Source: an uncultured Verrucomicrobiales bacterium (GTDB lineage: Bacteria > Verrucomicrobiota > Verrucomicrobiia > JADLBR01 > JAIBCM01). From it: a DNA stretch of 64,000 nt. The stretch lies in contig CAYSZK010000005.1 in assembly GCA_964435495.1 (NCBI GenBank), positions 9,434 through 73,433 on the forward strand, given 5' to 3'. Made by a program: the position numbers and the translations under genes. Of the stretch, positions 1 to 42,730 are shown in pieces; within the stretch, counting starts at the first letter, position 1; the number at the start of each line of letters is the position of its first letter. Below the pieces are notes generated by a model. That model ran no database searches. It saw nothing but the letters and a program-made list of their open reading frames with translations, and was not told where the DNA came from.

Positions 1-340
1 CGCTTGGGCCGCCCCACTAGTCCCTCGCACTCCAGCGCCGTCGCCTTTCGCAACGGACGCAGCCCGTGCCACAATCTTCCCGGACATTCCCAACCTTCCC
101 CACGTGCGCCGCACTTTTACGGCGGCGAGGGCGCCGCCGCTCCAGGTTGTGGGGTGCATGGGCTTGCGCGCCATTCGCCGCTTGGGCCGCCCCACTTGTC
201 CGTCGCTCTCCGGCGCCGTCCCCTTTCGCAACGGACGCAGCCCGTGCCGTGATCTTCCCGAACATTCCCAACCTTCCCCTCGCGCACCGCACTTTTACGG
301 CGGCGGGGGCGCCGCCGCTCCAGGGGCGCCACCTGACGGC
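1..340. repeat. Two tandem ~177-bp copies of a REP-like element with a GC hairpin core (ACGGCGGCGAGGGCGCCGCCGCTCCA; 8-bp stem CGGCGGCG/CGCCGCCG, loop AGGG)
   Basis: Direct comparison of 1-177 with 178-330 shows near-identical units. The core hairpin recurs at 8535-8950. Confidence 0.8.
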
Positions 341-1311
341 GTTTGGTCGTCGCCCTTCACCGGCCCGATGGCGACGGGCGCCGCGTCAGGCTGGTCGGCG
401 GGCGCCACACTTGCGGCGCCATCCTTGAGATCGAGCACTTTGTAGGTTGCGCCTTTCATCTCGAATGTGCCCCCTTTGAACACGTCGATCTGCCGGTTCT
501 CCACCAGGAACAGCAGTTTGCCCGTGTGCCTGGGCGCGTCCGAAAGGACGCCCTTCACCAGCGTGATCTGGTCGCCCGAGATTTCGTTGGCGAGGTCCAG
601 TTCCGACTCGTCGTAGGTCTGCATGATGCCGGTCTTGTCGTTGAGCTTCTCGTACACCTTCTGGCGAAAGGCGACGGCCTTCCAACCCTCCACCACGCCA
701 CCGATCTTCACGAGCTGGCGTTGTTTCCTCCGGTCGGGCAGCCCGGGCATCCGAATCTGGAAAACGTTCTCCCCGGAAACCATCTCGTAGGACCCGAGCA
801 TCATTTTAAACGGCACCGGCTCGTAGGACGCCACGCGGAGTTTGTCGGTGTAGGGCGCGTGGCTGGCCGGGTCCCGGGGGTCGGTGCCTTTCTGGAATTC
901 CTCACCATTGACAAACCCGTCCCCGTCCTCGTCCTGCGCTTCGACTCTCAGGACGTCGGTTGGGAACCGGTGCTTCTTCAGCCATTCGTCGGTGATCCCG
1001 TAGCGCCCGCGCCCCTTGGTTTCGTCATAGACCGCCAGCTTCCCTTCCGCCGGCAGCCACTCGATCCGGCGCGAAATGAAGAGCCTGTGGCCCGACTCCG
1101 GCGGGCGCCAGTTGGGAGCCTTCCCCAATTCGGCGTCCAGACCGGCGTAGGCCTCAAGATCGGAATCCACCTGCTTGGCGGCACGAGCGGAACCCTCCGG
1201 CGGCGGCACCGCCATGTCCAGGCCCAGCGCCGCGAGCAATCCCACCACAGCCGCCACCAGCAGCACCGCCAACAAAACGGCGTGTTCGATGTTCCCGCGC
1301 AACCAGTTCAT
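295..1311 (-). CDS. Pilus-assembly associated membrane protein (N-terminal TM helix, acidic DEDGDGFVNGEEF Ca-binding-like loop); last gene of the pilMN cluster, PilP/Amuc_1099-position
   Basis: ATG at 1311 overlaps the upstream stop (ATGA). It has one N-terminal TM segment. The C-terminal ~12 codons run into the repeat at 178-330. Confidence 0.5.
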   Translation of the reverse strand: MNWLRGNIEHAVLLAVLLVAAVVGLLAALGLDMAVPPPEGSARAAKQVDSDLEAYAGLDAELGKAPNWRPPESGHRLFISRRIEWLPAEGKLAVYDETKGRGRYGITDEWLKKHRFPTDVLRVEAQDEDGDGFVNGEEFQKGTDPRDPASHAPYTDKLRVASYEPVPFKMMLGSYEMVSGENVFQIRMPGLPDRRKQRQLVKIGGVVEGWKAVAFRQKVYEKLNDKTGIMQTYDESELDLANEISGDQITLVKGVLSDAPRHTGKLLFLVENRQIDVFKGGTFEMKGATYKVLDLKDGAASVAPADQPDAAPVAIGPVKGDDQTPSGGAPGAAAPPPP

Positions 1312-2309
1312 GGCCGGTTCCCCCTGGGTTTGGCCTCCGCCCGCGGCGCCTCCGGCCCGCGCAATTCCACGTAATCCACGCGCATCTCCACATCGATGGA
1401 CTCCTCGCCGAAGATCATGATCGCCTTGCCCGTGGTCATGCTGTCCACCATCTGCTGGCGCTCGGCCTCGGACCGGAACGCCGTGTTCGCCTGAAGCTTC
1501 GCCGGGTCCTTCAAATCCCGCACCGTGGGCGGCTGCGCCTTCTGGTTGTTAACCCGCACTGACCGGATCACGTAACGCGGCGGGGTCTGTTCCGCTCCGG
1601 CCAGCCGGTTCACAAACGCCCGCAGCTCCGCGTCCTTGGACGTGAACCGGACCACGAACGGCATCGAGGTGTAGGCCAGGTCCGGACGGTTGATGTGGAT
1701 GCCCGGCAGCAAATCCGCGCCATCCCCCGCGCCGCCCTGCGGGCGCCTTTCCTGGGCATCCGCGCCGCGCCCCCCCATTTCCTCGACGGGCATGCGCTGG
1801 ATGGCGGACAGCTTTCGCACCCGGGCGTCCACAAGGAATTTCACGAGTTCCTGGACGATCGCGAGCTGCTTGGTCAGCATCCCGGTCGCCTCGCGCGTGG
1901 GCATGGCGTTCTCGTACCTCGAGAAGCCGAACGCGAAATTGGGCGGGATTTCCACCAGATCCTTGCATTCCGCGGTGAGTTGGTCGCGCACCTGCCGAAG
2001 CCGGGTCTGGAAATCGATGGGGTTCATCACCTCGCCGGCGGCCTCCGCTTCGCCCAGGCGCTTGACGGCCGGCGCCAGGAACCCTTCCAGCGCCGCGTTG
2101 TTCTTGTTCAGCTTCTCGACGTTTTCCGGGCTCGGAAAAATCGCCCGCGCCTTCAACTGGATGATCTCCGCCCCGGCGTTGGACAGCTCCTGCTCCAGCG
2201 CCGCCGTCCGCGCGCGGGCGCCGGACCACACAAATGCGCCCGCACCCAGGACCACCGCCAGCAGCACGCCCAGCGTCACAAGGCTCACGTTGTTGCGAAT
2301 CCAGTCCAT
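1308..2309 (-). CDS. Amuc_1100-like / PilO-like type IV pilus associated protein
   Basis: N-terminus MMDWIRNN, a single TM, a coiled coil, and segments (FQTRLRQVRDQLTAECKDL..., RYVIRSVRVNNQKAQPP..., IFGEESIDVEMRVDYVEL) that align to the Akkermansia Amuc_1100 family as I recall it. The start overlaps the pilMN stop (GTGATG). Confidence 0.6.
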   Translation of the reverse strand: MDWIRNNVSLVTLGVLLAVVLGAGAFVWSGARARTAALEQELSNAGAEIIQLKARAIFPSPENVEKLNKNNAALEGFLAPAVKRLGEAEAAGEVMNPIDFQTRLRQVRDQLTAECKDLVEIPPNFAFGFSRYENAMPTREATGMLTKQLAIVQELVKFLVDARVRKLSAIQRMPVEEMGGRGADAQERRPQGGAGDGADLLPGIHINRPDLAYTSMPFVVRFTSKDAELRAFVNRLAGAEQTPPRYVIRSVRVNNQKAQPPTVRDLKDPAKLQANTAFRSEAERQQMVDSMTTGKAIMIFGEESIDVEMRVDYVELRGPEAPRAEAKPRGNRP

Positions 2310-4108
2310 CACGGCACCAGCGATATCGGGTTTTTAAGTTTTGCGCGCACCCGGAAATCAAGCGCCAGCTTGTCCTCCTGCGCCGCCACCAGCTCGACCT
2401 TCACAAATTGCGGATCCTCAATCGCCGCGCGGTTCATGGCAAACCACTCCGACTTGGTCAGGTTGTTCAGGAAACGCTTGATCGTCTGTTCCCCCGTTTC
2501 CTGCATCTTCTCCGGATCGCGCAACGCCTCCTTGTCGTAGGCCTCGTAAAAACCTTCCAGGATCAGTTCGTCAACCGCCGTCCCGCCTTCCTGGCGCCTG
2601 GCCGCGGCCGCGCCCATGCTCCGCGGGCCACCCTGCTGCGGCGGCGCCGCAGGCCGCACAAGGGCCGGCAGGACCGACCCGTTGGCCGCGCCCTCCAGCG
2701 ACGTGATCCACACGCCTGTCGGCGTGATCCGGTTCAACTCTTCCAGCAGCCCCACCCAGAACATCCGGTCCCGCGCGAGCTGCAACAACTGGTCCGCCCG
2801 CGTCCGGTTGGCCGCGAACGAGCCCTCCTCCTTCTTGAGTTTGGCCTCCTCGGCCCGAAGCCGCCGCAGCTCCGCGTTGCGGCTTTCCAGCTCCTCCGCC
2901 ATCACCGCCGCGCGCCGCGATTCCGCGAACCACAACGCCCCAAACATCAACGCCAGGGCCGCCGCCGCCGCAAAAATCATCGAACGCCGCTCCCGGGCCA
3001 CGCGCCGCGCCCGGGTCGCCGCGGGGATCAGGTCCACCTCCAGCGGGCACTCGGCCACGTCCCGCAACGCGAGCCCGACCACCTCGCCCATCAAATGGGC
3101 GGACCGGCCCAGCGCCTGGGGATCGATTCCCCGGCCCACCGCGACGTTGCGCAGCGGATTGAAGGGCTCCACCGGCACGCCAAGCTTCTCGGAAAAGAAC
3201 AAATCCATGTAGGGCATCATGCTGCCCCCGCCCGTCAGCAGGATCCGCGACGGCGCCGCGCCCCCCTGCTGGCTCCGGTAAAAACCGATGGACCGCGCAA
3301 CCTCCGCGTGCAACCGCGTCAACACCCCGCGCACCACCTTCGACGCGCGCGCCGCGACCGGATCGGCCGGGTCCTCATAGGCGCCGCCCAGGCCGACAAA
3401 CGCCTTGTCGTGTTTCACCGCCTCCGCCTCCGCAAAGCTCCCGCCCAAATCCGACTCGATGGCGTGGGTGATCTGGTTGCCCGCAATCGGCACGCCCCGG
3501 ATGAACACCCGGCCGGCCTCCACAAACAGCAACTGGGTGGTCTTCGCCCCTATGTCCAGCACCAGGGTGCAACCGGGATAATCGGCGTAATTGAAGCGCA
3601 CCGCGTTGTAGAGCGCCAGCGGCGCCACGTCCACGCGCTTGGGCAGGCACCCCGCCGCCAACACCGCGCCGTCGATCCGGTCAAGAATGTCAGCCTTGAT
3701 CGCCACGATCACCGCCTCCAATTCCGTTCCCGCGCCTCCCGCCATCAGTTGGTAGTCCCAAACCACTTCCTCCATCGGAAACGGAACGTTCGACCCGGCC
3801 TCGAAGCGGACGATCCGCTCCACGTTCTCTGGCGCCGAGGGCGGCAACTTCACAAACCGCGTGAACACCGATTGCCCCGACACGCTGTAGGACACCGGCG
3901 CGTTGCGGACCCGGCGCCCGCCCAGCGCCGTCCGCAGCGCCCCCGTAACCGCCGCCGCCCGGTGCTCGTCTTCCGCCGCGTGGTCCACCCCAAGCACCGT
4001 GGACGAGAACCCCAACACCGCCAACCCGCGCCCGGAAGGCTGGAACACGCCCACCTTGATGCTGAAGGCACCGAGGTCAACGGTAATGATCGAGGAAGCT
4101 GACGCCAT
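2309..4108 (-). CDS. pilM: Type IV pilus assembly PilM (actin-like ATPase fold) fused to PilN (TM + coiled coil + periplasmic domain)
   Basis: 599 aa. N-terminal ~370 aa show the FtsA/PilM-like pattern (ITVDLGAFSIKVGVF ... LLTGGGS). Then a TM helix (MIFAAAAALALMFGALWFA), a coiled coil and a PilN-like C-terminus. ATG at 4108. Confidence 0.75.
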   Translation of the reverse strand: MASASSIITVDLGAFSIKVGVFQPSGRGLAVLGFSSTVLGVDHAAEDEHRAAAVTGALRTALGGRRVRNAPVSYSVSGQSVFTRFVKLPPSAPENVERIVRFEAGSNVPFPMEEVVWDYQLMAGGAGTELEAVIVAIKADILDRIDGAVLAAGCLPKRVDVAPLALYNAVRFNYADYPGCTLVLDIGAKTTQLLFVEAGRVFIRGVPIAGNQITHAIESDLGGSFAEAEAVKHDKAFVGLGGAYEDPADPVAARASKVVRGVLTRLHAEVARSIGFYRSQQGGAAPSRILLTGGGSMMPYMDLFFSEKLGVPVEPFNPLRNVAVGRGIDPQALGRSAHLMGEVVGLALRDVAECPLEVDLIPAATRARRVARERRSMIFAAAAALALMFGALWFAESRRAAVMAEELESRNAELRRLRAEEAKLKKEEGSFAANRTRADQLLQLARDRMFWVGLLEELNRITPTGVWITSLEGAANGSVLPALVRPAAPPQQGGPRSMGAAAARRQEGGTAVDELILEGFYEAYDKEALRDPEKMQETGEQTIKRFLNNLTKSEWFAMNRAAIEDPQFVKVELVAAQEDKLALDFRVRAKLKNPISLVP

Positions 4109-4136
4109 GGCCCAAAATGCCGGTTCTCCCCCGCCG

Positions 4137-4769
4137 CTACCTGCCCGCCTCCATCAACGGCGGATACCGGTCCCAATAATCCATCGCCCACGGCGTCTTG
4201 GTGACCGGCACCAGCACCCCGGTCTTGCCCCCGCGCGTATACCATCCCTCCTCGCCCGCCTTCTTCCCCTTCTCCAAAAGCTCCATCTCCCCCTGCACCC
4301 GCCCCTTGAAAAAAATCTCCACCGCCACGTTGGCCTTGGTTTTCATCACCGAATCCCCGCCAAACCTGCCCACCACCGCCGGCGGCAGATACGCCACCGC
4401 ATACACCTCCCGCGACTTCCGCAACGGCCCGTACACCAGGTCCACCGAATAAATTTCCCGCTGCCCCGTCTCCTCGTCCTCCGGCGCCAGCACATGAATC
4501 TTCACCTGGACCTGGTCCAAAAACTTCCCCGGCACATCCCGGTCATCGGGATTCGCCTCAAACTGCGCCTCGATCTCCATCCACTTCTCGTCCTCCAGCG
4601 CCTTCTTCTTGCTCCCCTGCGCGTTCACACCCTTCCTTGGGGTCTCGGGAAAATCCACCTTGATCTCCGTCACCTTGAAACCCGGCGCCTGCTGCGCCAC
4701 CAGCGAATCCGCTCCCAACGCCCAGCACCCCCCCGCCAACGCCGCCGCCAACATCCGGCTTTTCATCAT
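4137..4769 (-). CDS. Secreted hypothetical protein (signal peptide, Lys/Glu-rich)
   Basis: N-terminal signal-like MMKSRMLAAALAGGCWALGA; no recognisable domain. Confidence 0.5.
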   Translation of the reverse strand: MMKSRMLAAALAGGCWALGADSLVAQQAPGFKVTEIKVDFPETPRKGVNAQGSKKKALEDEKWMEIEAQFEANPDDRDVPGKFLDQVQVKIHVLAPEDEETGQREIYSVDLVYGPLRKSREVYAVAYLPPAVVGRFGGDSVMKTKANVAVEIFFKGRVQGEMELLEKGKKAGEEGWYTRGGKTGVLVPVTKTPWAMDYWDRYPPLMEAGR

Positions 4770-4879
4770 GCACTCTCGTTAACGCCCCGCGCCGTTCGGG
4801 TCAATCCCTTAATTTCAACGCCGCGTGCCCGCGAATCCCCGCGGCCACCGCCTCCCCCGGACCGCAAGGATTCACCCGC

Positions 4880-5935
4880 TTACACGACCAGCATCGCGTC
4901 CCCAAAGCTGTAAAACCGGTACCGCTCCCGCACCGCCTCCGCGTACGCCTCCTTCAAAAACGCCAGCCCGTCCCCAGGCCGCGCCGCCCCGCCCCCGTTC
5001 TCCAAAAACGCCGCCACCAACATCAACAACGTGGACCGCGGCAAATGAAAGTTCGTCACCAGCGCGTCCACATGCCGGAACCGGTGCGGCGGACGCACAA
5101 ACAACGTCGTCCGGCCCCCGTGCCCGCGCAGCTCGTTCACCGACTCCAGCACCCGCGCCGCCGTTGTCCCCACCGCCACGCGCCGGGACGCCGCCCGCGC
5201 CCGCCGCGCCGTCTCTTCCGGCAGCCAATAACGTTCGCTCTGCATGACGTGGCCCTCCACGTCCGCGGTCTTCACCGGACGGAACGTCCCCGGCCCCACG
5301 TGCAACGTCACGAACGCCGCGGGCAACGCCGCCATCATCTCCGGCGTGAAATGCAGCCCCGCCGTCGGCGCCGCCACCGAACCCGCCTCCCGCGCGTACG
5401 CCGTCTGATACCGTTCCCGGTCCCCCGGACGCTCCCGCGCCGCCCCGTCCGCGTCCCCGCCCGCCTCCAGTTTGCGCCGCGCCAATATGTACGGCGGCAA
5501 CGGCGTCAGCCCGAACGCCTCCGGCTCAAACGCCCCGTGAAACCGCACCACGCGCTCCCCACGCTCCAGGGTCTTCAGCACCTCCGCCCCCACCGTCCCC
5601 CCGCCGTCCCGCCGCGCAAACGTGAACCGCGCCCCGGCCCGTGTCCGCTTCGCCGGCGTCGCCAGGCAGACCCAGTGCCCTGGACCCGTCTCCTCGACCA
5701 GCAACAACTCCACCACCCCGTCCTCCGCGATCAACCGCGCCGGCAACACCCGCGAATCGTTGAACACCCACACGTCTCCCGCCCTTGCCAGGGACGGCAA
5801 ATCCGCCACGCTCCGGTGTTCCCAACTCCGCCGCCCCCGGTCCACCACCATCAACCGCGCCCCGTCCCGCCGCGCCGCCGGTTCGGTCGCGATCAGATCA
5901 GCCGGCAGATCAAAATCAAAATCCGACGTCTTCAT
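4880..5935 (-). CDS. queA: S-adenosylmethionine:tRNA ribosyltransferase-isomerase
   Basis: MKTSDFDFDLPADLIATEP start and overall QueA-like sequence; 351 aa. Confidence 0.9.
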   Translation of the reverse strand: MKTSDFDFDLPADLIATEPAARRDGARLMVVDRGRRSWEHRSVADLPSLARAGDVWVFNDSRVLPARLIAEDGVVELLLVEETGPGHWVCLATPAKRTRAGARFTFARRDGGGTVGAEVLKTLERGERVVRFHGAFEPEAFGLTPLPPYILARRKLEAGGDADGAARERPGDRERYQTAYAREAGSVAAPTAGLHFTPEMMAALPAAFVTLHVGPGTFRPVKTADVEGHVMQSERYWLPEETARRARAASRRVAVGTTAARVLESVNELRGHGGRTTLFVRPPHRFRHVDALVTNFHLPRSTLLMLVAAFLENGGGAARPGDGLAFLKEAYAEAVRERYRFYSFGDAMLVV

Positions 5936-5968: not shown

Positions 5969-8029
5969 TCACAACTCCGCCGCCCGTCCCACCGCCTCCG
6001 CCACAATCCCCGGCGTCAGCAGCTCCGGCAACACCGCCGGCGCCGCCCCCGCCCGGCCCGGATACACCAAGTACAACGGCACCCCCGCCCGCCCGTGCGC
6101 TTCGAGCGCGCGCTTGATCTCCGGATCAAACCGCGTCCAATCCCCCTTCAACGCCGCCACATTCCGAGCCCGGAACAGCTCCACCGTCGCCGGTATCTCC
6201 AGCGACGACGCTTCGTTCGCCTTGCACGACAAACACCACGCCGCGGTGAAATCCACAAATACCGGCCGCCCCTCCGCCTGCAACGCCGCCACGCGCTCCG
6301 CCGACCACGCTTCCCACGCGATCCCCCGCTTCTCCCCCGCCTCCGCCACCGCCGGGCCCCCACCCCAAACCCAGCCCGCCCCCGCGCACACCGCCGCCGC
6401 CGCCCAGGCCAGGGCTCGGGACCGCCCCTTCGCCACCGGCCCGGCAAACGAGCCCACCAGCCACACCCCCAGCGCCAGCGCCACCAGAAACACCCCCAGC
6501 CCCGCCGCCGCGTCCACCCCCCGCGCCGACGCAAACACCCACACCAACCAAAGCAACGTCGCCAGCATCGGGAATCCGCAGAACTGCTTGAACCGCTCCA
6601 TCCACGCCCCCGGCTTCGGCAAGAACCGCAGCAGCCGCGGGTCCGCCGTCAACAGCACATACGGCGCCGCCATCCCAACCCCAAGCGCCGCGAAAACCGC
6701 CAGGGTCACCACCGGCGGCTCCGCCAGCGCGAATCCCACCGCGGCCCCCATGAACGGCGCCGTGCAGGGCGTCGCCAGGGTCGTCGCCAAAACCCCGCTG
6801 AAAAACGAGCCCGCGAACCCTTCCTTCGCCGCCAGCCCGCTTCCCACGCCCATCATCGAGGTCCCAATCTCAAACACCCCGAACAACGACATCGTGATCA
6901 GCAACACCAGCACGCACAAAAACAACAGAAACCCCGGCGCTTGGAACTGGAACCCCCACCCCAGCTCCTGCCCCGCCGCCCGCAGCCCGATCAACAATCC
7001 CGCCAACGCCAAAAACGACAGCACCACGCCCGCCGCAAACACCAGCCCGTGCCCCAGCGCACCCCCGTGCGCCTCCCCCTGCCGCACAAATCCCAGCACC
7101 TTCAATGAAATCACCGGCAGCACGCACGGCATCACATTCAAAATCAGCCCGCCCAAAAACGCGCCCCACAAAATCCCGCCCAATCCCCCGCCAACCCCAG
7201 CCCCATCCACCGGCACATCCACCTCCGCCGCGCCCACGACTTTCCCGCTCCCATCCCGCACCACCGCAACCCCCGTCAACCGCGCCACCCTCCCCTTCGC
7301 CAACGCCGAATACGGCAGATCCACCCCCAGCCCACCGCCCGCCGCCAGCGTCCGCTGCTCCGCGTCATGCCGCACCTGCTCCGGCGTGTCCGGAAAAAAT
7401 TCCAGCACCGCCCCCGCCGGAAACGCCGCCTTCGGCGCCACCTGCACCCGTACAGCCGCGCCGCCCAGGTCCGCCGCCGCCACCCGCCAGCCCAAAGCCT
7501 CCGGCGCCTTGGGTATCGCCCCCTCCGCCGCCGCAAAAAGCCCCGCCACGCCCGAATCCGCCGCGCCGTCCCCTTGCGGCAGCTCCAACGCCAGCTTCGC
7601 CTCCCCAGGCACGCAAATCTCCCGGCACATCAGCCAGCCCACCTCCGCCCCAACCTTCACGGGTCCCGGCGGAAGCGCGGCAGGCGGCGTGACATCAAAC
7701 AGCAGCCACGCCTCCCCATGCCACGCATACGACACCACCCCGCCCACCACCACCCGTTCCGGCGCCGGCCACCGCGGACCAGCCACCTCGAACCCCTCCG
7801 GCAGCGTCCACGCCACCTTCGTCGGAAATCCCGAGTCCGCCGGGTTCTTCCAATAAACATGCCACTTCTCGTCCATCCGCAGCCGCACCGCCACGGCAAA
7901 CGGCTTCCCCGGCGCCACCGACGCCACCGCCGGAATCAGCGACACCTCCACCCGCTCCACCCGCGCCGTGCCCGCCCCAGGCGCGCTTGATGCCCCCGCC
8001 ACAAAAAGGCCGCACGCGGCGCCGCGCAT
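5969..8029 (-). CDS. dsbD: Thiol:disulfide interchange protein DsbD (N-terminal periplasmic domain, CcdA-like TM core, C-terminal thioredoxin WCLSC)
   Basis: The TM core carries NVMPCVLPV. The C-terminal thioredoxin domain reads FVDFTAAWCLSCKANE. The ORF runs up to 8266, but the likely start is the Met before the signal-like MRGAACGLFVAGASS (8029). Confidence 0.8.
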   Translation of the reverse strand: MRGAACGLFVAGASSAPGAGTARVERVEVSLIPAVASVAPGKPFAVAVRLRMDEKWHVYWKNPADSGFPTKVAWTLPEGFEVAGPRWPAPERVVVGGVVSYAWHGEAWLLFDVTPPAALPPGPVKVGAEVGWLMCREICVPGEAKLALELPQGDGAADSGVAGLFAAAEGAIPKAPEALGWRVAAADLGGAAVRVQVAPKAAFPAGAVLEFFPDTPEQVRHDAEQRTLAAGGGLGVDLPYSALAKGRVARLTGVAVVRDGSGKVVGAAEVDVPVDGAGVGGGLGGILWGAFLGGLILNVMPCVLPVISLKVLGFVRQGEAHGGALGHGLVFAAGVVLSFLALAGLLIGLRAAGQELGWGFQFQAPGFLLFLCVLVLLITMSLFGVFEIGTSMMGVGSGLAAKEGFAGSFFSGVLATTLATPCTAPFMGAAVGFALAEPPVVTLAVFAALGVGMAAPYVLLTADPRLLRFLPKPGAWMERFKQFCGFPMLATLLWLVWVFASARGVDAAAGLGVFLVALALGVWLVGSFAGPVAKGRSRALAWAAAAVCAGAGWVWGGGPAVAEAGEKRGIAWEAWSAERVAALQAEGRPVFVDFTAAWCLSCKANEASSLEIPATVELFRARNVAALKGDWTRFDPEIKRALEAHGRAGVPLYLVYPGRAGAAPAVLPELLTPGIVAEAVGRAAEL

Positions 8030-8127
8030 CAAGCCGCGCCCGCGGCCCAACAGCCCGGCACGCCCGGCTTTGCGCCCTTCGCCTCGCATGCCGCCATTCT
8101 CGGGGATGCGCGCGGCCCCGGTCGAGC

Positions 8128-8490
8128 TTATTTCCTCACCTGGATCAACGGGCTCATCCCCGCCCCCGCGGCCTGCGCCGCGTGCTCCTCGTCCGAGCAA
8201 GCGGAATTGGTCGGCGCCCCGGCCGGCCGCGCGTCCGGCGCCACCACGCCCTCGCGCACCAGCCACGCCTCCAACTCGTCGCCGGACACATCGGCCACAA
8301 TTCGGCCCCCAACGTCCAGCGTCGGTTGAAGCGCCTGGCCGCTCTTTTCCACCATCTCGCGGAAGTTGGCGGCGTTGTTGATGATGTCCCGGTCCTCGAA
8401 CGGCAGGCCGTATTTGCGCAACACCGCGCGCACCCCGTTGCTCCAGCCGCAGGACGGTTTCAAGTAGGCTATGATCTTGGGTTTTTGCAT
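8128..8490 (-). CDS. Glutaredoxin-like small redox protein
   Basis: MQKPKIIAYLKPSCGWSNGVRAVLRKYGLPFEDRDI matches the Grx/NrdH-like fold pattern. ATG at 8490. The upstream in-frame extension is translated repeat DNA. Confidence 0.6.
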   Translation of the reverse strand: MQKPKIIAYLKPSCGWSNGVRAVLRKYGLPFEDRDIINNAANFREMVEKSGQALQPTLDVGGRIVADVSGDELEAWLVREGVVAPDARPAGAPTNSACSDEEHAAQAAGAGMSPLIQVRK

Positions 8491-8534
8491 GGCAGGGAAA
8501 CTAATCGCCAACGCCCAGCCCGCAACCCGTTTTT

Positions 8535-8950
8535 TGCCTGGGCGGCGAGGGCCCTTGGGGCGGCGGCGCCCTCGCCGCCGTTTGTGTGCGGGGGACGAGG
8601 GGGAACGCCCGAGTGACGGCGCGTGCACGGGTCCAGGCACAACACTTTCCCAAGCCACGCCCTTGTTACGGCGGCGAGGGCGCCGCCGCTCCATGTGGGG
8701 ACGAGGGGGAACGCCCAAGTGGCGGAGCGCGCACGGGTCCAGGCACAACACTTTCCCCAGGCACACCCTTGATACGGCGGCGAGGGCGCCGCCGCTCCAG
8801 CGCGCGTGGGTCCAGGCTCGGCACTTTCTCCGGGGCACACCCTTGATACGGCGGCGAGGGCGCCGCCGCTCCAACGCGCCCGAGGCCAGGCTCAGCACTT
8901 TCTCCGAGGCACGCCCTCGATACAGCGGCGGAGGCGCCGACGCTCCGCTT
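8535..8950. repeat. Tandem array (~5 units, ~75-85 bp period) of the same GC-hairpin REP-like core seen at 1-340
   Basis: Repeated ...CACTTTCC..GCAC.CCCTTGATACGGCGGCGAGGGCGCCGCCGCTCCA units fill the gap between the araC 3' end and the grx-like 5' end. Confidence 0.8.
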
Positions 8951-8951
8951 T

Positions 8952-9791
8952 TCAGCCCGCGGCGGCGCTGGCATGCTGGCGGCGCCACACTCCCGGCGCG
9001 GCGCCGAGGCCGCGGCGGCAGAGGGCGTAAAAGTGGCCGAGGTTCTCAAGGCCGCAATCCATGGCTATCTCAATGATCGGCATATCGGTTTCCGCAAGCA
9101 ACTGCGCCGCGTGCCGAAGCCGCGCTTCATTGACAAGGTCCGACGGACGCTTGCCCAGGAACCGGCGGCAGGACCGCGCGACGTGCTCGGGACTTCGCCC
9201 CGCCAGCCGCGCCAGCGCGCCAGGCCCGGCGCAGAAGTTCGGATGTTCCGCAAGCCGTTCCCCGGCGCGGCGGAGCCAGTCGGGGACGGGCACCCCCGCG
9301 GGGGCCATCGGCCGGGGCGCCAGCATGGAAAGAACGCCCAAAAGAAAACTTTCGACCGCCAACCGGTCCCAATGCCCGGCCCGCAGATCGGCGGATAGCA
9401 TGTCGAGCCGCGCGATGCGTTCGGGCGCCAGCCGATGGCCGAGCGGCACATCCGCAGGCGCGGAAAAAAGGACGCGCCTGCCGCGAAAATGCGCGGCGCG
9501 GACACGGTCCCAGACCGGCGCCCGCAGGGTGACATTGACGAATTCAAGCGCCTCGCCCGGCGCCGCGGCGAACCCGTGCGCGTCGGGCGCCCGGACAAGG
9601 AAAAGGTCCCCGGGCTTGAGCGGAAGCGCGGCGCCATTGAGGAAATGGATGCCGGCGCCGCGCTCGACCCAGAACAGCTCGTGAAAATCGTGCCGGTGCG
9701 GTTCGGGCCGGTGCGTGGACCGGTAGCGCCAGCGCATGTACGTTCCGGCGTGCTCCCGCGGCCACGCCGCGGCGGACAGGGTTCGCATCAA
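8952..9791 (-). CDS. AraC family transcriptional regulator (cupin sensor + HTH)
   Basis: The C-terminal HTH region (...IIEIAMDCGLENLGHFYALCRRGLGAAP) and N-terminal cupin-like region are typical AraC/XylS. Confidence 0.7.
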   Translation of the reverse strand: MMRTLSAAAWPREHAGTYMRWRYRSTHRPEPHRHDFHELFWVERGAGIHFLNGAALPLKPGDLFLVRAPDAHGFAAAPGEALEFVNVTLRAPVWDRVRAAHFRGRRVLFSAPADVPLGHRLAPERIARLDMLSADLRAGHWDRLAVESFLLGVLSMLAPRPMAPAGVPVPDWLRRAGERLAEHPNFCAGPGALARLAGRSPEHVARSCRRFLGKRPSDLVNEARLRHAAQLLAETDMPIIEIAMDCGLENLGHFYALCRRGLGAAPGVWRRQHASAAAG

Positions 9792-9846
9792 AATACCGTA
9801 ATCCGCGCGCCGGGGAAGGCAAGCGCCGCGGGGCCGCGGGCCCGCC

Positions 9847-10941
<1,095 letters not shown>

Positions 10942-12735: not shown

Positions 12736-13548
12736 TCAGCCCGCCAGTCCTTCGGGGATGGCCATCTTGCGGGTCTCGCCGGCGTCGCCGCGGGCGGGGC
12801 TTCCGGGGAGCGCGCCGGGCAACCGGCGGGTGACGAGGCGCAGGGCTGTCTCCAGCAATCCGGAGCCGCCGGGAGTCTCCAGCGCCACCCAGGCGTCGTG
12901 GAGAAAATGCGCGGCCACAGCGCCGAAATGAATGAGATCATGCGGGTCCAGAACCGCGTCGCCGGTGCGGATGCCGTTCACGAAGGTGCCGTTCTCGGAA
13001 CCGAGATCGCGGAGGATGACCCCCTCGGGCAACACTTCGAGGATGGCGTGCTCGCGCGAAACGGTGTCGTCCACAACGGTGATCTGGTTGGTCCAGCCGC
13101 GGCCCACGGTCACGATCTGCTGCCGGAGATGGTAGAGGATGGGCGGGCTGCCGGCGCCAATGCGCAACGCCGGCACGGAGCCGGTGGATTCCCCCGGCAC
13201 AAGAGCCGATTCGATGGCTTCGTCCCGATGGCGCACCGCCTGAAGCAGGAGTGCGTCCATCGGAACGGACATCGGCTCGGAATCGACAAGGCAGACGGGC
13301 ATGAACTCGATCCGGGCGCCGCGGAGGTTGACCAGCTCGACAAAAGCGCCCGGACCCGACAGGCCGCCGCATGTGGCGCGGACCGGCACGCCGCCGCGAA
13401 AATGAATTTTGCCGCGTCCCCGGCCGGACTCGAACACCAGGCAGCCGGAGACCTGGGCCATGCCGATGGCCTGGACCAGGTATTCGGTCGGGAGAAACCC
13501 CGACAAATGGAATACGGGCGGGCGCGGTTCGTTTTCAGGCGGGCTCAT
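12736..13548 (-). CDS. DUF4388-like N-terminal domain + C-terminal FHA domain protein
   Basis: C-terminal FHA signature (TVGRGWTNQITVVDDTVSREHAILEV...LRDLGSENGTFVNG). Confidence 0.65.
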   Translation of the reverse strand: MSPPENEPRPPVFHLSGFLPTEYLVQAIGMAQVSGCLVFESGRGRGKIHFRGGVPVRATCGGLSGPGAFVELVNLRGARIEFMPVCLVDSEPMSVPMDALLLQAVRHRDEAIESALVPGESTGSVPALRIGAGSPPILYHLRQQIVTVGRGWTNQITVVDDTVSREHAILEVLPEGVILRDLGSENGTFVNGIRTGDAVLDPHDLIHFGAVAAHFLHDAWVALETPGGSGLLETALRLVTRRLPGALPGSPARGDAGETRKMAIPEGLAG

Positions 13549-13794: not shown

Positions 13795-14427
13795 ATGGCG
13801 CGGCCAGAAGCAGCCCGCCACGCCATGAGCGGGCGTGCCTCCCGGCCCCGGCGCTGCCCATGGTGCCCCGCCGATGACCCGCTCTACACGGCCTACCACG
13901 ACCGGGAATGGGGTGTTCCCGTCCGGGACGGGCGGCGCCTGTTCGAGATGCTCAACCTGGAGGGCGCCCAGGCGGGGCTGAGCTGGCGGACGATTTTGCA
14001 TCGGCGCGAGGGGTACCGCCGGGTATTCGAGGGGTTTGACGCGGCCAGGCTGGCGCGCTGGAGCGAGACGAAGATCGCGCGGGCGCTGCGGGACGAGGGC
14101 ATCGTGCGGAACCGCCTCAAGGTGCGCGGCGTGGTCCGGAACGCGCGGGCGTTTCTCGAAGCGTTCGGGGGGGACTACAAGGCGTTCGCGAAGTTCCTCT
14201 GGTCGTTCACGGGCGGGCGGCCCGCGGCGAACCGCTTCCGTGCGATGCGCGAGGTGCCGTCCCGGGCGGAGCCAAGCGACCGGATGAGCCGCGAGTTGAA
14301 GGCGCTGGGGTTCACGTTTGTGGGTTCGACAATTTGTTATGCTTTCATGCAGGCGGTTGGCATGGCCAACGATCATCTGGTCTCCTGCTTCCGGCACGAG
14401 GCCTGCCGCCGCGCCCGCGCCGATTGA
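13795..14427 (+). CDS. tag: DNA-3-methyladenine glycosylase I
   Basis: RCPWCPADDPLYTAYHDREWGVP ... EGAQAGLSW matches Tag. The start is either of two Mets at 13795 or 13825. Confidence 0.8.
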   Translation: MARPEAARHAMSGRASRPRRCPWCPADDPLYTAYHDREWGVPVRDGRRLFEMLNLEGAQAGLSWRTILHRREGYRRVFEGFDAARLARWSETKIARALRDEGIVRNRLKVRGVVRNARAFLEAFGGDYKAFAKFLWSFTGGRPAANRFRAMREVPSRAEPSDRMSRELKALGFTFVGSTICYAFMQAVGMANDHLVSCFRHEACRRARAD

Positions 14428-14623
14428 TTGGCCCGCGATTCCGCGGGTCCCCAGCCCGGCCTTCCTGGGAAGAACCGGGGAATCCTCTTCCCTCCTCCCC
14501 ATCGCGGGAATCGAGTGGCCAGGCTTCGGGACCGTTCTGTCCCCACCCATCCAACCAAGGAACCGGACAGGGACAGACCTGAATGGCGCTTGCGCGTGTT
14601 GGAATGCAGTCCAACATCGCGTT

Positions 14624-15265
14624 GTGTCCGCCCGGCTGCTGGTTCCCGAACTCCTGGACGCGCTGCCGTCCGGCGCCCCTGCGGCGCGGCGGGGACGGCG
14701 CGACCTGCGGTTGATCAACGCGCTGATGGGCAACTTCGGATGGTTCGTCCAAACGCTCCGGCGCCGCGCGGTCCCGCCCGGCCGGTGGGTGGAGTTGGGC
14801 GCGGGAGACGGGCGCTTGCTGGCGGCGTTGCAAAGGCGTTTCCCAGACGCGCGATTGACGGGCGTGGACCGCGCGCCGGAGCCGGAGAAGCTGGCGCAAG
14901 GCGTAGATTGGGAGCGGGCGGACCTGTTCGCGTCCCGGGCGGCGGGGGCGGGCGCGGTGATCCTTGCGAACCTTGTGTTGCACCATTTCGAGGACGGGGA
15001 ATTGCGGCGGCTTGCGGCGGGCTGGCGCGGGGCGCGCATGATCCTGGCGTGCGAACCGTTGCGGGCGCCGGGCGCGCACGCTTGGGGCCGCCTTTTGGAG
15101 CCTGTCTTGCATCCGGTGACGCGGCACGACATGCACGCGAGCATCGACGCGGGGTTTCGGCCCGGGGAACTGGCGGCGGCGCTGGGGCTGGACCCGCGCG
15201 TGTGGGCGGTGGCGGAGAGGCGGGGAAGGTTTGGGTCGGTGCGGCTGGAGGCGTGGCGCCCATGA
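14624..15265 (+). CDS. Class I SAM-dependent methyltransferase (first gene of MT-FMO-PKS operon)
   Basis: Motif I WVELGAGDGRLL, acidic post-I GVDR and motif III VILANLVLHHF. The start is uncertain: the ORF is open from 14318, the GTG at 14624 is proposed, and the first in-frame ATG is at 14726. The stop overlaps the next start (ATGA at 15262-15265). Confidence 0.55.
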   Translation: MSARLLVPELLDALPSGAPAARRGRRDLRLINALMGNFGWFVQTLRRRAVPPGRWVELGAGDGRLLAALQRRFPDARLTGVDRAPEPEKLAQGVDWERADLFASRAAGAGAVILANLVLHHFEDGELRRLAAGWRGARMILACEPLRAPGAHAWGRLLEPVLHPVTRHDMHASIDAGFRPGELAAALGLDPRVWAVAERRGRFGSVRLEAWRP

Positions 15266-16281
15266 ACACCATCACGATTGCCGGCGGCGGCCTCGCGGGA
15301 CTGGGCCTCGGTCTGGCGCTTGCGCGGCGGGGCGTCCCGGTGGAGTTGCACGAGGCCGGCGCCTATCCGCGGCACCGGGTGTGCGGCGAGTTCTTGTGCG
15401 GGTTGGACCGGGGTGTCGCGGAGGACCTCGGCGTGGCGCCCTTCCTGGAGGACGCGGAACGGCTGCGGACGTGCGTCTGGTTTGCCGGCGGACGGCCATT
15501 CCTGCGCCGGGCGTTGCCGGAGGTGGCGCTGGGGATGTCGCGTTACCGGTTGGACGCGCGCCTCGCCGCGGCCGCGGCCGGGGCCGGCGTGGCGCTGCGC
15601 GCGGGGTCGGCATGCGAACCGGGCGCAGCCGAGGGGCGGGTGTGGGCGGCGGGCAAATCGGCGCGGGCCGGCGGGCGCTGGGTGGGTATGAAGTGCCACG
15701 TGGCCGGGTTCGACGCCGAGGCCGATCTGGAAATGCACGTGGGCAACGGCGGGTATGTGGGCCTGTCCCGCGTCGAGGACGGGCGCGCCAATGTTTGCGG
15801 ATTGTTCCGGCGCGGCGCGGGTTCCGCGGGCGGTCCGGGGCTGGCGGGAATGCGGCGTTGGATGGAGGGAACGGGTCTGGAGGCGCTGGCGTCGCGGTTG
15901 GGACGCGGCGCGGAGGTGGCGGGCAGCCACGCGGCGGTGGCGGGGTTCCGGTTCGGGCGCGTGCGGGGCGGCCGGGAGGAGTTGCGGATCGGGGACGCGC
16001 ACGCGCTGATTCCGCCGTTCACCGGCAACGGGATGTCAATGGCGCTGGAATCGGCGTGGGAGGCGTTGGGGCCATTGGAGGCGTATGCGCGCGGGCGCAT
16101 GGCGTGGGGGGAGTGCCGCGTGCGAATCCACAGGGCGCTGCGGCGCCGGTTCCGGCGGCGGCTGGCGTGGGCGGCGGCGCTGCATCCGCTGGCCTTGAAC
16201 CTGGCGGCGGCGGGCGGGCTGGCGAAGTGGGAGCGTTGGGTGCCGTTCGCGTTTTTCTTTTGGAGGCTCAGAAGCGCGTGA
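15262..16281 (+). CDS. FAD-dependent monooxygenase / hydroxylase (group A flavoprotein)
   Basis: N-terminal dinucleotide fold ITIAGGGLAGLGLGLALARRG and the GDAxH..P..G.G motif RIGDAHALIPPFTGNGMSMALESA. 340 aa. Confidence 0.7.
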   Translation: MNTITIAGGGLAGLGLGLALARRGVPVELHEAGAYPRHRVCGEFLCGLDRGVAEDLGVAPFLEDAERLRTCVWFAGGRPFLRRALPEVALGMSRYRLDARLAAAAAGAGVALRAGSACEPGAAEGRVWAAGKSARAGGRWVGMKCHVAGFDAEADLEMHVGNGGYVGLSRVEDGRANVCGLFRRGAGSAGGPGLAGMRRWMEGTGLEALASRLGRGAEVAGSHAAVAGFRFGRVRGGREELRIGDAHALIPPFTGNGMSMALESAWEALGPLEAYARGRMAWGECRVRIHRALRRRFRRRLAWAAALHPLALNLAAAGGLAKWERWVPFAFFFWRLRSA

Positions 16282-16283
16282 GC

Positions 16284-17309
16284 ATGCGGCTGCGCGGACT
16301 GGCGCCGGCGTTTCCGCCCTTTGTGTACACGCAGCGGGCGCTGTGGGAGGCGCTGGAGGCGCCGTTCGGGAAACGGCTGCGCCCCGCTTCGATGGAACTC
16401 CTGGGCCAGTTGTTCCACGGCAACAGCGGGATCGAGACGCGGCGGTTTTTCGTGGAGGAGCCCGCGGCCGTGTTCGCGCTGGGCGCGCAGGAGTTGAACG
16501 CGCGGTTCGAGGCGCAGGCGCCCGCGCTGGCGGTGGACGCGGTGCGCCGGGCGCTGGTCCATGCGGGGGAGGAGGCGGCAAGGTTGGACGCGCTCTTTGT
16601 CGCAACCTGCACCGGGTATCTGTGTCCCGGCGTATCCAGCCACGCCGCGGAGGCGCTCGGGTTGCGGGATTCGGCCTGCCTCCACGATCTGGCGGGGTAT
16701 GGCTGCGCGGCGGCCATCCCGATGCTTCGGGCGGCGTCGGATTTTCTGGCGGCAAACCCCGGAGCGCTGGTGGCGACGGTGGCGGTCGAGGTTTGCTCGG
16801 CGGCGTTTTACGTGGATGACGATCCCGGCGTGCTGGTGAGCCTCTGCCTTTTTGGCGACGGCGCGGCGGCGGGCGTCTGGGACCGCGCGCCCGGCGAACC
16901 GGGCTGGCACGCGGGCGGCTTCCTAAGCTTGCACCGTCCGGAGCACCGGGAGCGCATCCGGTTCGTCAACGCCGGCGGGAAACTCAAGAACCAGCTTCAT
17001 CGTTCCGTGCCGGTGCTGGCGGCGCGGGCGGTGGAAGAGTTGTGGCGGCGGGACGGAGGGGCGCACGATGGCGTGGTGGCGCACACGGGCGGGCGCGAAG
17101 TGCTTGACGCGGTTGAGAAGCTTCTCCCCGGCGTGGCGCTGCCGGAATCGCGCGCGGTGCTGCGGGAGTACGGGAACCTGAGCAGCCCGAGCGTGCTGGT
17201 GGCGCTGGAGAAACGGCTCACGGCACGCCCCGGCGAGCGGTCGCTATGGTTGACGGCGTTCGGGGCGGGCTTCTCCGCCCACGCCTGCCGGCTGGTACGG
17301 ACGGGGTGA
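16284..17309 (+). CDS. Type III polyketide synthase (chalcone/stilbene synthase superfamily)
   Basis: Active-site Cys context LHDLAGYGCAAAIPMLRAASD and FGDGAAA. His motif VAHTGGREVLDAVEK (CHS-type HPGGPAILD rather than FabH HQAN). Asn motif EYGNLSSPSVLVALE. C-terminal AFGAGFS. The start is 3 bp after the upstream stop. Confidence 0.75.
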   Translation: MRLRGLAPAFPPFVYTQRALWEALEAPFGKRLRPASMELLGQLFHGNSGIETRRFFVEEPAAVFALGAQELNARFEAQAPALAVDAVRRALVHAGEEAARLDALFVATCTGYLCPGVSSHAAEALGLRDSACLHDLAGYGCAAAIPMLRAASDFLAANPGALVATVAVEVCSAAFYVDDDPGVLVSLCLFGDGAAAGVWDRAPGEPGWHAGGFLSLHRPEHRERIRFVNAGGKLKNQLHRSVPVLAARAVEELWRRDGGAHDGVVAHTGGREVLDAVEKLLPGVALPESRAVLREYGNLSSPSVLVALEKRLTARPGERSLWLTAFGAGFSAHACRLVRTG

Positions 17310-17356
17310 GAGGGATGGGCCCTGTTCGGCGCCCTTTCCTTCTCCCGACCCCTTTT

Positions 17357-17926
17357 TCAGGGGGACAGCCGGGCGAGGAGGGGCGCGCGGCAGGCGGGCA
17401 GCCGCCCGAAGTTCTGGCCGAAGACATTGGCGAAATGGCGCAGGGCGCCGCGTTCCGGCGGCGGGCCCAGTCCGAGCAGCAGCAACAGCCGGCGCTCAAA
17501 CCGGCGCACGACTTCGAGGGAGGCGGGTTTCGCGTTGAGGTATTCGAGCCCGCGCACGACGAGATCGAACACCTCGGGCGCCGGGTGCGCTTCGGGCAGC
17601 GCGAGCCGTCCCAGTTCCGCAAAGTAACAGGCGGCCTCCAGCCGGGCCAGGTCGGAGGCCAGCCCCGGGAAGTGGCGGCCGGGGGTGGCTTCGCGCACCC
17701 AGGCGCGCGGGGCGCGTCCCCCGGCGGCGCGACCCAGCCCGAGCACGACCTCCGGCACACGCAGCAGGGAGAGGGATGCGGCCATGGGCGAGCCGGCTTT
17801 GCGGAGCGCGCCCCTGGCGGTGGCCCGGAACCAGCCGTGGCCGCGGGTGAGCAGGACAAGGTCCAGAGAGGTTTCCCCCGAACGCGCCCGGCTCAGGACG
17901 ATGGCGCTGTCACGGAGCGGAATCAT
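17357..17926 (-). CDS. recO: DNA repair protein RecO
   Basis: N-terminal OB-fold pattern (AIVLSRARSGETSLDLVLLTRGHG); position downstream of ybeY with ATGA overlap. Confidence 0.7.
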   Translation of the reverse strand: MIPLRDSAIVLSRARSGETSLDLVLLTRGHGWFRATARGALRKAGSPMAASLSLLRVPEVVLGLGRAAGGRAPRAWVREATPGRHFPGLASDLARLEAACYFAELGRLALPEAHPAPEVFDLVVRGLEYLNAKPASLEVVRRFERRLLLLLGLGPPPERGALRHFANVFGQNFGRLPACRAPLLARLSP

Positions 17927-41497: not shown

Positions 41498-42730
41498 CTA
41501 CCGCCCGCCGGAGAACGGCGCCGGGAGCGCGATCCTGCCGCCGGAAAACGCCAAGTCCACCGGTTCCGGAGCGACTTCGCAACGGGGATGCGCGCGTAAT
41601 TCTTCCCCCAAATCCGGCGTCACATAGAGGGTCTCCAGGTGCAGGGTGTTGGGGATGAACATCCAGCGCGTGTCCCCATACCGCTCCCGCAACCGCGCCA
41701 CAAGCTCCTCGTCATCGCGCAGGGTGCACGGAATGGCCATCCGCCGCATATCCCCGGTCGTGAACACGTTGAGGAAGGTCTTTTGCTCGTTGATCGCGTC
41801 CCGCAGCCGTTGGGTGATGAAATCGGCGAGCCCGACTCCGATGGCGTTGCCCTGCGAGGCCGCGGCCAGGTTCAAGGCCGCGATCACCTGGATGAAGGGG
41901 CGGGTGAGGTCCTCCCCGCCCCGCACCCCGCGGAACCCGATCACGTTGGTGTCCATGCCGGTCCCGCTGTAGGTCTTGCCGATCTCGTCCACCACCAGCA
42001 CCTTCAGTTCGTCCACCGGGAGCTGGGGGAAATAATGCCGGTGCCGCTCCAGCAGCGCCCGTTCCTTCTCGATGATTTCCGCGGGGCGCAGCGCGTGCAA
42101 TTCCGCCGTCTGGTCGTTGCCGTCCTCGAGGATCGCGAGCCCGGCGAAAATCCGGCCCGACGCGAGCATGCACCGCCCCATTTCGACCAGCATGTCCTTG
42201 CGCGCTTCCGGCTTGGCCGTGTGAAACGTGGTCGCCGATGGGATTTTGCCCATCCCGATCACCATCATCTTCACCAACCCGCTCTGCAACGGCCCGGAAA
42301 AGCAGGTGTGCAGCTTCACCCGGTTCAGCACCAGCACGCCCGCGGCCTCAAAACAGTTCCGGTCCATCCAGACGTCGCCCGTGGAGACGGTTCCGACTTT
42401 CACCACATCCATGCTCGAGCGGATTTCCATGCCCAGGAACGCTTCGGTCATGCCCAGCGACTCGACCATGGCCCGCTGGCCCTCCGCGGTCCCGCCGTTG
42501 TGCGATCCCATGCACGGCGCCAGAAACGGGCGCGCCCCGCGCTTGCGCAGCCAGTCCCCGGCCGCCTTGGTAATCAACGCAATGTTTGAGATTCCCCGGC
42601 TCCCGCCCGTGATCGCCACGTCCCCCTTCGGCGGGTCCATCCCCGGCGCGTCGAGTTGCCGATGGACCTCCGCCTCAAGGTCAGGGATCGGATGCAACAC
42701 AAGATGCTGGGTGACGCGGTGCAGTTTCAT
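41498..42730 (-). CDS. Hypothetical protein, possibly LarA/DUF2088-like (nickel-pincer-type racemase superfamily); unassigned
   Basis: 410 aa. Loose resemblance to LarA blocks ([43 protein letters not shown]). No lar accessory genes in the window. Confidence 0.35.

Follow-up and report, generated by a model that had tools for sequence, protein, structure and literature searches.

The closest described systems to the locus considered here, a three-gene cassette on the forward strand of a 64-kb stretch of DNA from an uncultured Verrucomicrobiales bacterium (contig CAYSZK010000005.1; the whole stretch is called the window, and coordinates are positions within it unless another locus is named), are operons that combine genes for a methyltransferase, a flavin adenine dinucleotide (FAD)-dependent enzyme and a type III polyketide synthase (PKS). 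In hidABC of Cyanobium sp. LEGE 06113, the operon of hierridins B and C, the names HidA, HidB and HidC stand for the methyltransferase, the flavoenzyme and the PKS in that order (PMC6836626, PMC8086630); an earlier sequence-only reading of the window had used HidA as the name of the PKS, which was a misassignment. Recombinant HidA accepts 5-pentadecylresorcinol as a methylation substrate in vitro, and the hydroxylase is proposed to be HidB (PMC6836626). Among planctomycetes, 58 of 96 type III PKS genes are the last in a tricistronic operon, where they follow genes for a methyltransferase and an FAD-oxidoreductase (Milke et al. 2024, PMC10896814). Planctomycetal PKSs produced C15/C17 alkylresorcinols in Corynebacterium glutamicum, those of Gimesia maris and Rhodopirellula baltica (three-gene operon) and of S. 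maiorica (two-gene variant) yielding alkylresorcinols, whilst two tested PKSs from outside the operon gave no product (PMC10896814). Addition of the G. maris genes mtr and fdo led to a gain of 14 Da, which is one methyl group, and left the role of the flavoenzyme open; the cyanobacterial and planctomycetal proteins are 48-55% identical (PMC10896814).

The cassette in the window occupies 14624-17309 and consists of three consecutive genes, for a methyltransferase, an FAD enzyme and a type III PKS. From its sequence we read it as a member of the hidABC operon type, a third and deep branch beyond the characterised clade, and we think it fairly likely that it is a deeply divergent, phylum-wide operon of that type which makes a hierridin-like amphiphilic phenolic lipid.

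Relationship to hid-type operons

The G. maris proteins used for comparison are an approximate rebuild from the supplement of Milke et al. (2024), and three clean planctomycetal loci (L081-L083, from Polystyrenella longa, Gimesia benthica and a third genome) were found as homologues of the rebuilt methyltransferase. In all three the order is methyltransferase, flavoenzyme, PKS, as in the window, and in two of them (L082 and L083, at 5705-5708 of the locus) the methyltransferase and flavoenzyme genes also share the 4-nt overlap. The rebuilt G. maris proteins and those of the window have the same top NCBIfam models, namely PRK06202.1 for the methyltransferase (152.7 bits for the G. maris protein), GG-red-SF then QhpG for the flavoenzyme and DpgA for the PKS. 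When whole families were aligned with hhalign, over almost their full lengths, the methyltransferases matched the planctomycetal HidA-like proteins at a probability of 99.4% (E 5e-21, 190 columns), the flavoenzymes matched their planctomycetal counterparts at 99.5% (E 6e-23, 299 columns) and the PKSs at 99.8% (325 columns). The methyltransferase alignment goes beyond the Rossmann core to span segments that are specific to the family, PELLD...DLRLIN...GN..W at the N-terminus and EP.R...VTRHD..SI.AGF..GE at the C-terminus. The claim of the sequence-only reading that this is a methyltransferase, flavoenzyme and type III PKS operon of hierridin type is therefore upheld, the three proteins being homologous to the planctomycetal trio and encoded in the same order.

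The junctions described in that reading, an ATGA at 15262-15265 and a 2-bp gap at 16281/16284 linking three genes on one strand, were confirmed by reading the sequence directly. It had also given the methyltransferase as short, some 215-300 aa, with an ambiguous start; short it is, at 213 aa, and the start can be settled at the GTG at 14624, since the homologues are 202-223 aa long and start at the corresponding position (x-x-x-R-x-x-x-PE(I/L)LD), and since a separate gene call with exactly the same 213-aa product is on record. The upstream gene, tag, ends at 14427.

Several points weigh against placing the cassette with hidABC. Pairwise identity to the planctomycetal proteins is ~24-30%, and the PKS, which is 28.7-30.3% identical to those of Polystyrenella and Gimesia, falls outside the HidC clade, whose members share 48-55%. 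The PKS is about equally close to THNS (80.7 bits) and to the planctomycetal PKSs (80-88.5 bits), so that sequence alone neither places it in the HidC clade nor predicts a resorcinol. All three proteins score below the curated NCBIfam equivalog cut-offs; the flavoenzyme has (A/T)(A/T)G(R/K) at the DG fingerprint, at which ADG is retained by two of three hid-type sequences; and not even for G. maris has the part played by this enzyme been proven (PMC10896814). A literature search found no paper on what any verrucomicrobial type III PKS makes, clusters of this sort appearing only as 'T3PKS' entries in antiSMASH surveys; the sequence-only reading, too, knew of no characterised example from a Verrucomicrobia-type genome.

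These low identities, together with the smaller size of the proteins (213, 339 and 341 aa as opposed to 235, 387-397 and 364-374 aa in hid-type operons) and the equidistance of the PKS scores from several type III PKS clades, would also fit a convergent origin, in which members of the same broad superfamilies (a class I methyltransferase, a flavoenzyme of PHBH fold and a type III PKS) were assembled independently and no function could be transferred from hid. However, the gene order and the 4-nt overlap are shared with planctomycetal loci, the family-specific ends of the methyltransferase are included in its alignment, and PRK06202.1 is matched by all ten verrucomicrobial methyltransferase relatives, being the only NCBIfam model common to them. 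Furthermore, in phmmer searches the score of the flavoenzyme against HidB-like proteins is double that against any flavoenzyme in the PDB (50.9 bits to the Polystyrenella enzyme, 24.3 bits to the best PDB chain). Independent assembly of the trio thus seems improbable to us, and we prefer common descent with the hid-type operons.

Two features of the Gimesia benthica locus (L083) may be recorded here. An MMPL-family gene, for an RND lipid transporter, lies at 7996-10257 of the locus and converges on the hid-type PKS gene with a 3' overlap of ~28 nt, and genes of the bpX0/bpX1/BpX2/bpX4 families occupy 1-4630, upstream of the cassette.

The type III polyketide synthase

The product of the third gene is, by family and catalytic residues, a true type III PKS, as judged from its sequence and its modelled fold. 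In Pfam it scores above the cut-off of 27 bits for both Chal_sti_synt_N (48.4 bits) and FAE1_CUT1_RppA (40.3 bits) and just below the same cut-off for Chal_sti_synt_C (25.4 bits). The only type III PKS model matched in NCBIfam is DpgA, at 110.7 bits, whereas the highest-scoring FabH model gets 52.7 bits. Every one of the 60 best PDB sequence matches shown is a type III PKS, with ~25-30% identity and with THNS (1u0m, 1e-21) at their head, and the top 50 PDB fold matches of the AlphaFold model (predicted local distance difference test, pLDDT, 85.1) are likewise all type III PKSs, led by PKS11 of Mycobacterium tuberculosis (TM 0.85, 25-26% identity). A FabH/KAS III identity was considered and is ruled out by these Pfam, NCBIfam, sequence and fold matches, which bear out the original assignment.

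The four PKS motifs that had been listed for this protein are all found in its sequence (Table 1), and the conservation of the catalytic Cys, His and Asn, which had been proposed as a check on the assignment, is complete: Cys141, His267 and Asn298 are invariant in an alignment with 15 relatives. The single stretch of the model with a pLDDT below 50 is a loop at residues 175-189 (16806-16850), which reads FYVDDDPGVLVSLC. Across the verrucomicrobial family the segment DDDPGVLISLCLFGDG at these residues hardly varies, and it differs from its hid-type counterpart.

It is with regard to the PKS that a different scaffold has to be weighed: the operon would be the same, and lactonisation, another starter or another number of extensions would give alkylpyrones, acylphloroglucinols or a small aromatic polyketide, which would then be decorated. 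The best structural neighbour, PKS11, is an alkylpyrone synthase, the best sequence match in the PDB is THNS, and identity to the proven alkylresorcinol synthases is 28-30%; moreover, one residue can decide how a type III PKS cyclises its product, W281 in ArsB as against G284 in ArsC (cited in PMC9927152). Set against this are the homology of the tailoring pair to HidA and HidB, which are the partners of a resorcinol ring, and the finding that the operon PKSs from G. maris, from R. baltica and from S. maiorica made alkylresorcinols (PMC10896814). We regard another scaffold as unlikely and retain an alkylresorcinol as the expected product of the PKS.

The methyltransferase and the flavoenzyme

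The first gene had been taken to encode a class I S-adenosylmethionine (SAM)-dependent methyltransferase, and Pfam, NCBIfam and the SAM-binding motif all agree with this. The Pfam families Methyltransf_23, Methyltransf_25 and Methyltransf_11 are matched at or slightly under their cut-offs, and the best NCBIfam model, PRK06202.1, covers nearly the whole protein at 30.5 bits, under a cut-off of 243.

The flavoenzyme had been described as a group-A FAD monooxygenase, a description that fits it in part. The AlphaFold2 model (pLDDT 90.5) has a fold of the PHBH/geranylgeranyl-reductase type; of the three fingerprints of such enzymes, GxGxxG and GD are present and DG is degenerate. Pfam gives no match at E<=0.01, PF01494 FAD_binding_3 included, and the protein is not a canonical PF01494 group-A enzyme, although a precomputed PF01494 match is recorded for roughly half of its relatives. 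The GDAxH motif that had been reported has to be withdrawn, as the GD region reads IGDAHALIPPFTGNG, which is GDAH (IGDAHA), and the His is neither conserved nor part of a family motif; following GD, AHA occurs in no more than 7 of 120 relatives, AES being commonest. At the DG position (residues 126-133, 15637-15660) the enzyme has VWAAGK and its verrucomicrobial clade VWAAG(R/K), likewise without the Asp, the hid-type sequences of Polystyrenella and Gimesia having (V/A)ADG and that of L081 having ACG. Loss of the DG fingerprint was entertained as a hallmark of the verrucomicrobial clade and has been softened, since L081, which supplies one of the three hid-type sequences, has no Asp there either.

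Against NCBIfam the flavoenzyme scores 38.9 bits with GG-red-SF and 26.6 bits with QhpG, in either case under cut-off, and all 36 relatives searched match both models. Its Foldseek neighbours, at TM 0.67-0.79, are PqsL (the best), the halogenases ChlB4 and PltA, 3HB6H, TrlE, HpxO and the geranylgeranyl reductase (GGR) Ta0516, and its PDB sequence matches are halogenases only. A flavin-dependent halogenase was therefore considered, hierridin C being chlorinated, and was ruled out: the WxWxIP halogenase motif occurs in none of the 120 relatives, nor in the three hid-type flavoenzymes.

The same results raise the matter of whether the enzyme could be a GGR/MenJ-type reductase, saturating a double bond such as one in an unsaturated alkyl chain, and not a ring hydroxylase. 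Its top NCBIfam model is that of the GG-reductase superfamily, MenJ is matched by 29 of the 36 relatives, several relatives are named 'menaquinone-9 beta-reductase' by JGI, and Ta0516 is amongst the fold neighbours. In addition the invariant PRHRVCGEF holds a Cys at what we take to be the position at which GGRs carry their conserved Cys. Nevertheless QhpG, a ring monooxygenase, is matched by all 36 relatives and GoxB by 25 of them, and the fold neighbours are mostly aromatic hydroxylases or halogenases. Hierridin B moreover requires one ring hydroxylation, for which HidB is the only candidate in hidABC (PMC6836626). A reductase is in our opinion a poor bet, and we continue to regard the enzyme as a putative ring hydroxylase.

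Distribution and inheritance

Relatives of the PKS number in the thousands, and the 120 best, which are 55-62% identical to it, were examined. The named sources of these are all Verrucomicrobiota with the exception of one record (P0115), a PKS of the verrucomicrobial clade at 57% identity which comes from a metagenome-assembled genome named 'Gloeobacteraceae cyanobacterium' at NCBI; the same sequence stands under Verrucomicrobia in nr, and the contig has probably been mis-binned. A scan of species-representative genomes gave at least 572 matching stretches, and the best 80 loci, which are those studied here, are all from Verrucomicrobiota: Verrucomicrobiales, Chthoniobacterales/Terrimicrobiaceae, Opitutales and one Limisphaerales.

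The sequence-only reading had named a lack of co-conservation in related genomes as something that would refute it; the three genes do occur together. Amongst the 74 of the 80 loci with enough upstream DNA, the methyltransferase, flavoenzyme and PKS genes are contiguous, in the same order and orientation, in 63, which include members of the Verrucomicrobiales, Chthoniobacterales and Opitutales. The remainder are made up of five loci with the flavoenzyme gene alone nearby, one with methyltransferase and PKS followed by a longer flavoenzyme, and five with the PKS alone. Neither tag nor recO, between which the cassette lies in the window, ever adjoins it in the other loci.

A rough neighbour-joining tree of the PKS tracks the orders fairly well, with a long branch to the planctomycetal PKSs, and the G+C content at third codon positions (GC3) of the three cassette genes is 0.86-0.88, equal to that of neighbouring genes. 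Since the tree roughly follows the orders and the GC3 is host-like, the sequence data argue for an old and largely vertical inheritance of the cassette; recent horizontal acquisition was considered and rejected on the same two observations. As the trio is conserved together, its flanks are not and the PKS tree tracks the orders, the cassette behaves like an old module of the phylum that is complete in itself.

There are variants of the arrangement. In L005 (6733-9675) the order is methyltransferase, PKS, flavoenzyme, and the flavoenzyme is a longer paralogue of ~396-409 aa that reaches Pfam FAD_binding_3 (47.8 bits). In a marine subclade of Akkermansiaceae/Verrucomicrobiales (L002, L013, L016, L020 and L023) a PKS of 335-339 aa, at ~8001-9010, is found without methyltransferase or flavoenzyme and starts ~15 nt after a resistance-nodulation-division (RND) efflux pair, made up of a ~381-aa HlyD-type membrane-fusion protein and a ~1080-aa pump of AcrB type (ACR_tran, 531 bits in L013); downstream of the PKS a multi-FKBP protein is encoded. 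The arrangement of these RND-linked loci suggests export of an undecorated product. In some Luteolibacter-like genomes ~0.8 kb of small genes are inserted between the methyltransferase and flavoenzyme genes: a gene for a PIN-domain (VapC-like) toxin in L040 (6420-6845; Pfam PIN, 39.6 bits) and L052 (6495-6926), and in L027 (2060-2810) two short reverse-strand open reading frames (ORFs) resembling a putative toxin-antitoxin pair.

Proposed product

By analogy with the hid-type operons the product is probably a methylated, hydroxylated long-chain alkylresorcinol or quinone. The PKS, through Cys141, His267 and Asn298, would be primed by a long-chain fatty-acyl thioester from primary lipid metabolism and would add three malonyl-CoA, and decarboxylative aldol closure of the resulting tetraketide would yield a 5-alkylresorcinol. 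The HidA-like methyltransferase would then methylate the ring, either on O, as HidA does, or on C, as has been suggested for G. maris, and the HidB-like flavoenzyme would hydroxylate it to give a methoxy- or methyl-alkyl-hydroxyquinol, which could oxidise to an alkylbenzoquinone. We infer alike which starter is used, which type of ring is formed, in what order and with what regiochemistry it is tailored, and what physiological role the product has. Each of the three alternatives set out above (another scaffold, a reductase, or convergence) is less well supported than a hierridin-like product made by a hid-type operon.

Work in other phyla has connected phenolic lipids of the alkylresorcinol type, and quinones that derive from these, with the envelopes of cysts and spores, with tolerance of beta-lactams and with respiration under hypoxia. 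A more far-reaching version, which we advance as a speculation and think rather doubtful, is that the cassette is an ancient, largely vertical trait of the Verrucomicrobiota and not an accessory cluster. Its methylated alkyl-hydroquinone or quinone would then have a core membrane function, as an alternative electron carrier, in the manner of the polyketide quinones of actinobacteria, or as an envelope or antioxidant lipid, and the short flavoenzyme with its degenerate DG fingerprint would be mechanistically unlike the classical NAD(P)H-dependent group A hydroxylases, for example in using externally reduced flavin as PqsL does.

Verrucomicrobiota are abundant in soil, freshwater and the sea and have few cultured members. 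The cassette gives three defined genes to express heterologously and to follow by lipidomics in cultured strains of Luteolibacter, Haloferula and Oceaniferula; cultured strains that carry it include Luteolibacter flavescens, L. pohnpeiensis, Luteolibacter sp. AS25 and Oceaniferula spumae NT6N. If our placement is correct, the hid-type operon, described from two phyla, would gain a third branch that is much deeper, and this is relevant to the proposal in the literature that horizontal transfer links the copies of cyanobacteria and planctomycetes.

Surroundings of the cassette

Annotation of the window was by Pfam on ORFs with host-like GC3 across the 64 kb. It agrees with the sequence-only reading in placing the cassette between tag and recO, the latter opening a convergent string of housekeeping genes (Table 1), and the rest of the window holds ordinary genes. 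No acyl-AMP ligase, acyl carrier protein or fatty-acid synthase gene was found amongst these ORFs. A sigma-70 consensus scan of 14200-17600 gave no promoter sites, and a terminator scan of the same interval gave nothing convincing and nothing beyond chance. Rfam found no family in or beside the cassette, its only matches in the window being two tRNAs, both elsewhere.

Just upstream of tag, and divergent from it, lies a gene on the reverse strand (12736-13548) for a protein with DUF4388 and FHA domains. Seven ORFs of 187-680 aa with host-like GC3 have no Pfam match at E<=1e-5. An ORF of 1230 aa at 58053-61742 has as its sole Pfam match one PATR (passenger-associated transport repeat) unit and, from this match, may encode an autotransporter-like surface protein; the short reverse-strand ORFs of very high GC3 that lie inside it are probably artefacts.

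Table 1. Positions of the cassette genes, their junctions and motifs, and of other features of the window
Feature	Position	Strand	Remarks
Methyltransferase gene	14624..15265	+	213 aa; GTG start, TGA stop 15263-15265; class I SAM-dependent, HidA/PRK06202-like
Flavoenzyme gene	15262..16281	+	339 aa; ATG 15262, TGA 16279-16281; FAD-dependent, HidB-like
Type III PKS gene	16284..17309	+	341 aa; ATG 16284, stop 17307-17309
ATGA stop/start overlap, methyltransferase/flavoenzyme	15262..15265	+	read directly from sequence; translational coupling
TGA-GC-ATG junction, flavoenzyme/PKS	16279..16286	+	2-nt gap; read directly from sequence
Spacer between tag and cassette	14428..14623	+	196 nt; only room for a promoter of the cassette's own
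WVELGAGDGR	14786-14815	+	methyltransferase; SAM-binding motif
GxGxxG (IAGGGLAGL)	15277-15303	+	flavoenzyme
YPRHRVCGEF	15364-15393	+	flavoenzyme
GD motif, IGDAHALIPPFTGNGMSMAL	15988-16047	+	flavoenzyme
GYGCAAA	16695-16715	+	PKS motif
Cys141	16704-16706	+	PKS; aligned with catalytic residue of THNS and 2-PS
LFGDGAAA	16848-16871	+	PKS; holds the equivalent of CHS Phe215
AHTGGREVL	17079-17105	+	PKS motif
His267	17082-17084	+	PKS; aligned with catalytic residue of THNS and 2-PS
GNLSSPSV	17172-17195	+	PKS motif
Asn298	17175-17177	+	PKS; aligned with catalytic residue of THNS and 2-PS
AFGAGFS	17256-17276	+	PKS motif
tag	ends 14427	+	Adenine_glyco, 241 bits; upstream neighbour of cassette
recO, then ybeY, 7TM-HD gene, phoH	downstream of cassette	-	convergent housekeeping string
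ORFs with host-like GC3 and no Pfam match	1311-2333, 4140-4778, 41501-42739, 43075-45114, 46057-47346, 50128-50688, 52633-54003		

Comparison with known systems

The systems with which the cassette had been compared in the sequence-only reading resemble it to different degrees. In Azotobacter vinelandii, arsABCD comprises two type III PKSs and two type I fatty-acid-synthase-like proteins, and makes the alkylresorcinols and alkylpyrones of the cyst; we know of no methyltransferase and flavoenzyme pair in it. The Azotobacter PKSs make long-chain phenolic lipids, as is proposed here, but genes for fatty-acid synthases like ArsA and ArsD are missing from the Pfam annotation of the window, and the architecture is not the same as had been thought. 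The M. tuberculosis enzymes PKS11 and PKS18 are amongst the top PDB sequence matches of the window PKS and are primed by long-chain fatty acyl groups, whereas their products are pyrones, their genomic context is another and their identity to the window PKS is low.

The functional logic is shared by srsABC of Streptomyces griseus and pkqABC of Mycobacterium smegmatis, in which a type III PKS makes an alkylresorcinol that is turned into a methylated quinone (an alkylbenzoquinone, or 'polyketide quinone') by a methyltransferase and an oxidoreductase or hydroxylase. SrsB, like BpsB, is a membrane methyltransferase of the ICMT type, unlike the soluble class I enzyme here. Both srsABC and pkqABC are three-gene operons in which the PKS comes first and the two tailoring genes follow (PMC9927152); in the window the PKS comes last, and srsABC is thus not the same architecture, as had been claimed.

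The closest match remains the hid type. In hidABC the three genes lie on the same strand and in the same order, with the PKS last, and this is also the case for the planctomycetal mtr-fdo-t3pks operons of G. maris and R. baltica; these operons, like the cassette, are without an acyl-activating gene and their flanks are not conserved. The differences are that all three window proteins are shorter, that the flavoenzyme is without ~45 residues of the middle domain and has a degenerate DG fingerprint, and that the PKS has GYGCAAA and AFGAGFS where hid-type PKSs have GFMGCHG and GFGPGL. The lineage of the window cassette is also limited to the Verrucomicrobiota, unlike the hid type of cyanobacteria and planctomycetes. 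It is no new kind of system, and as a fairly ordinary biosynthetic cassette it will not surprise the specialist; the operon type itself is already known, and it is the divergent branch running through a whole phylum that is new.

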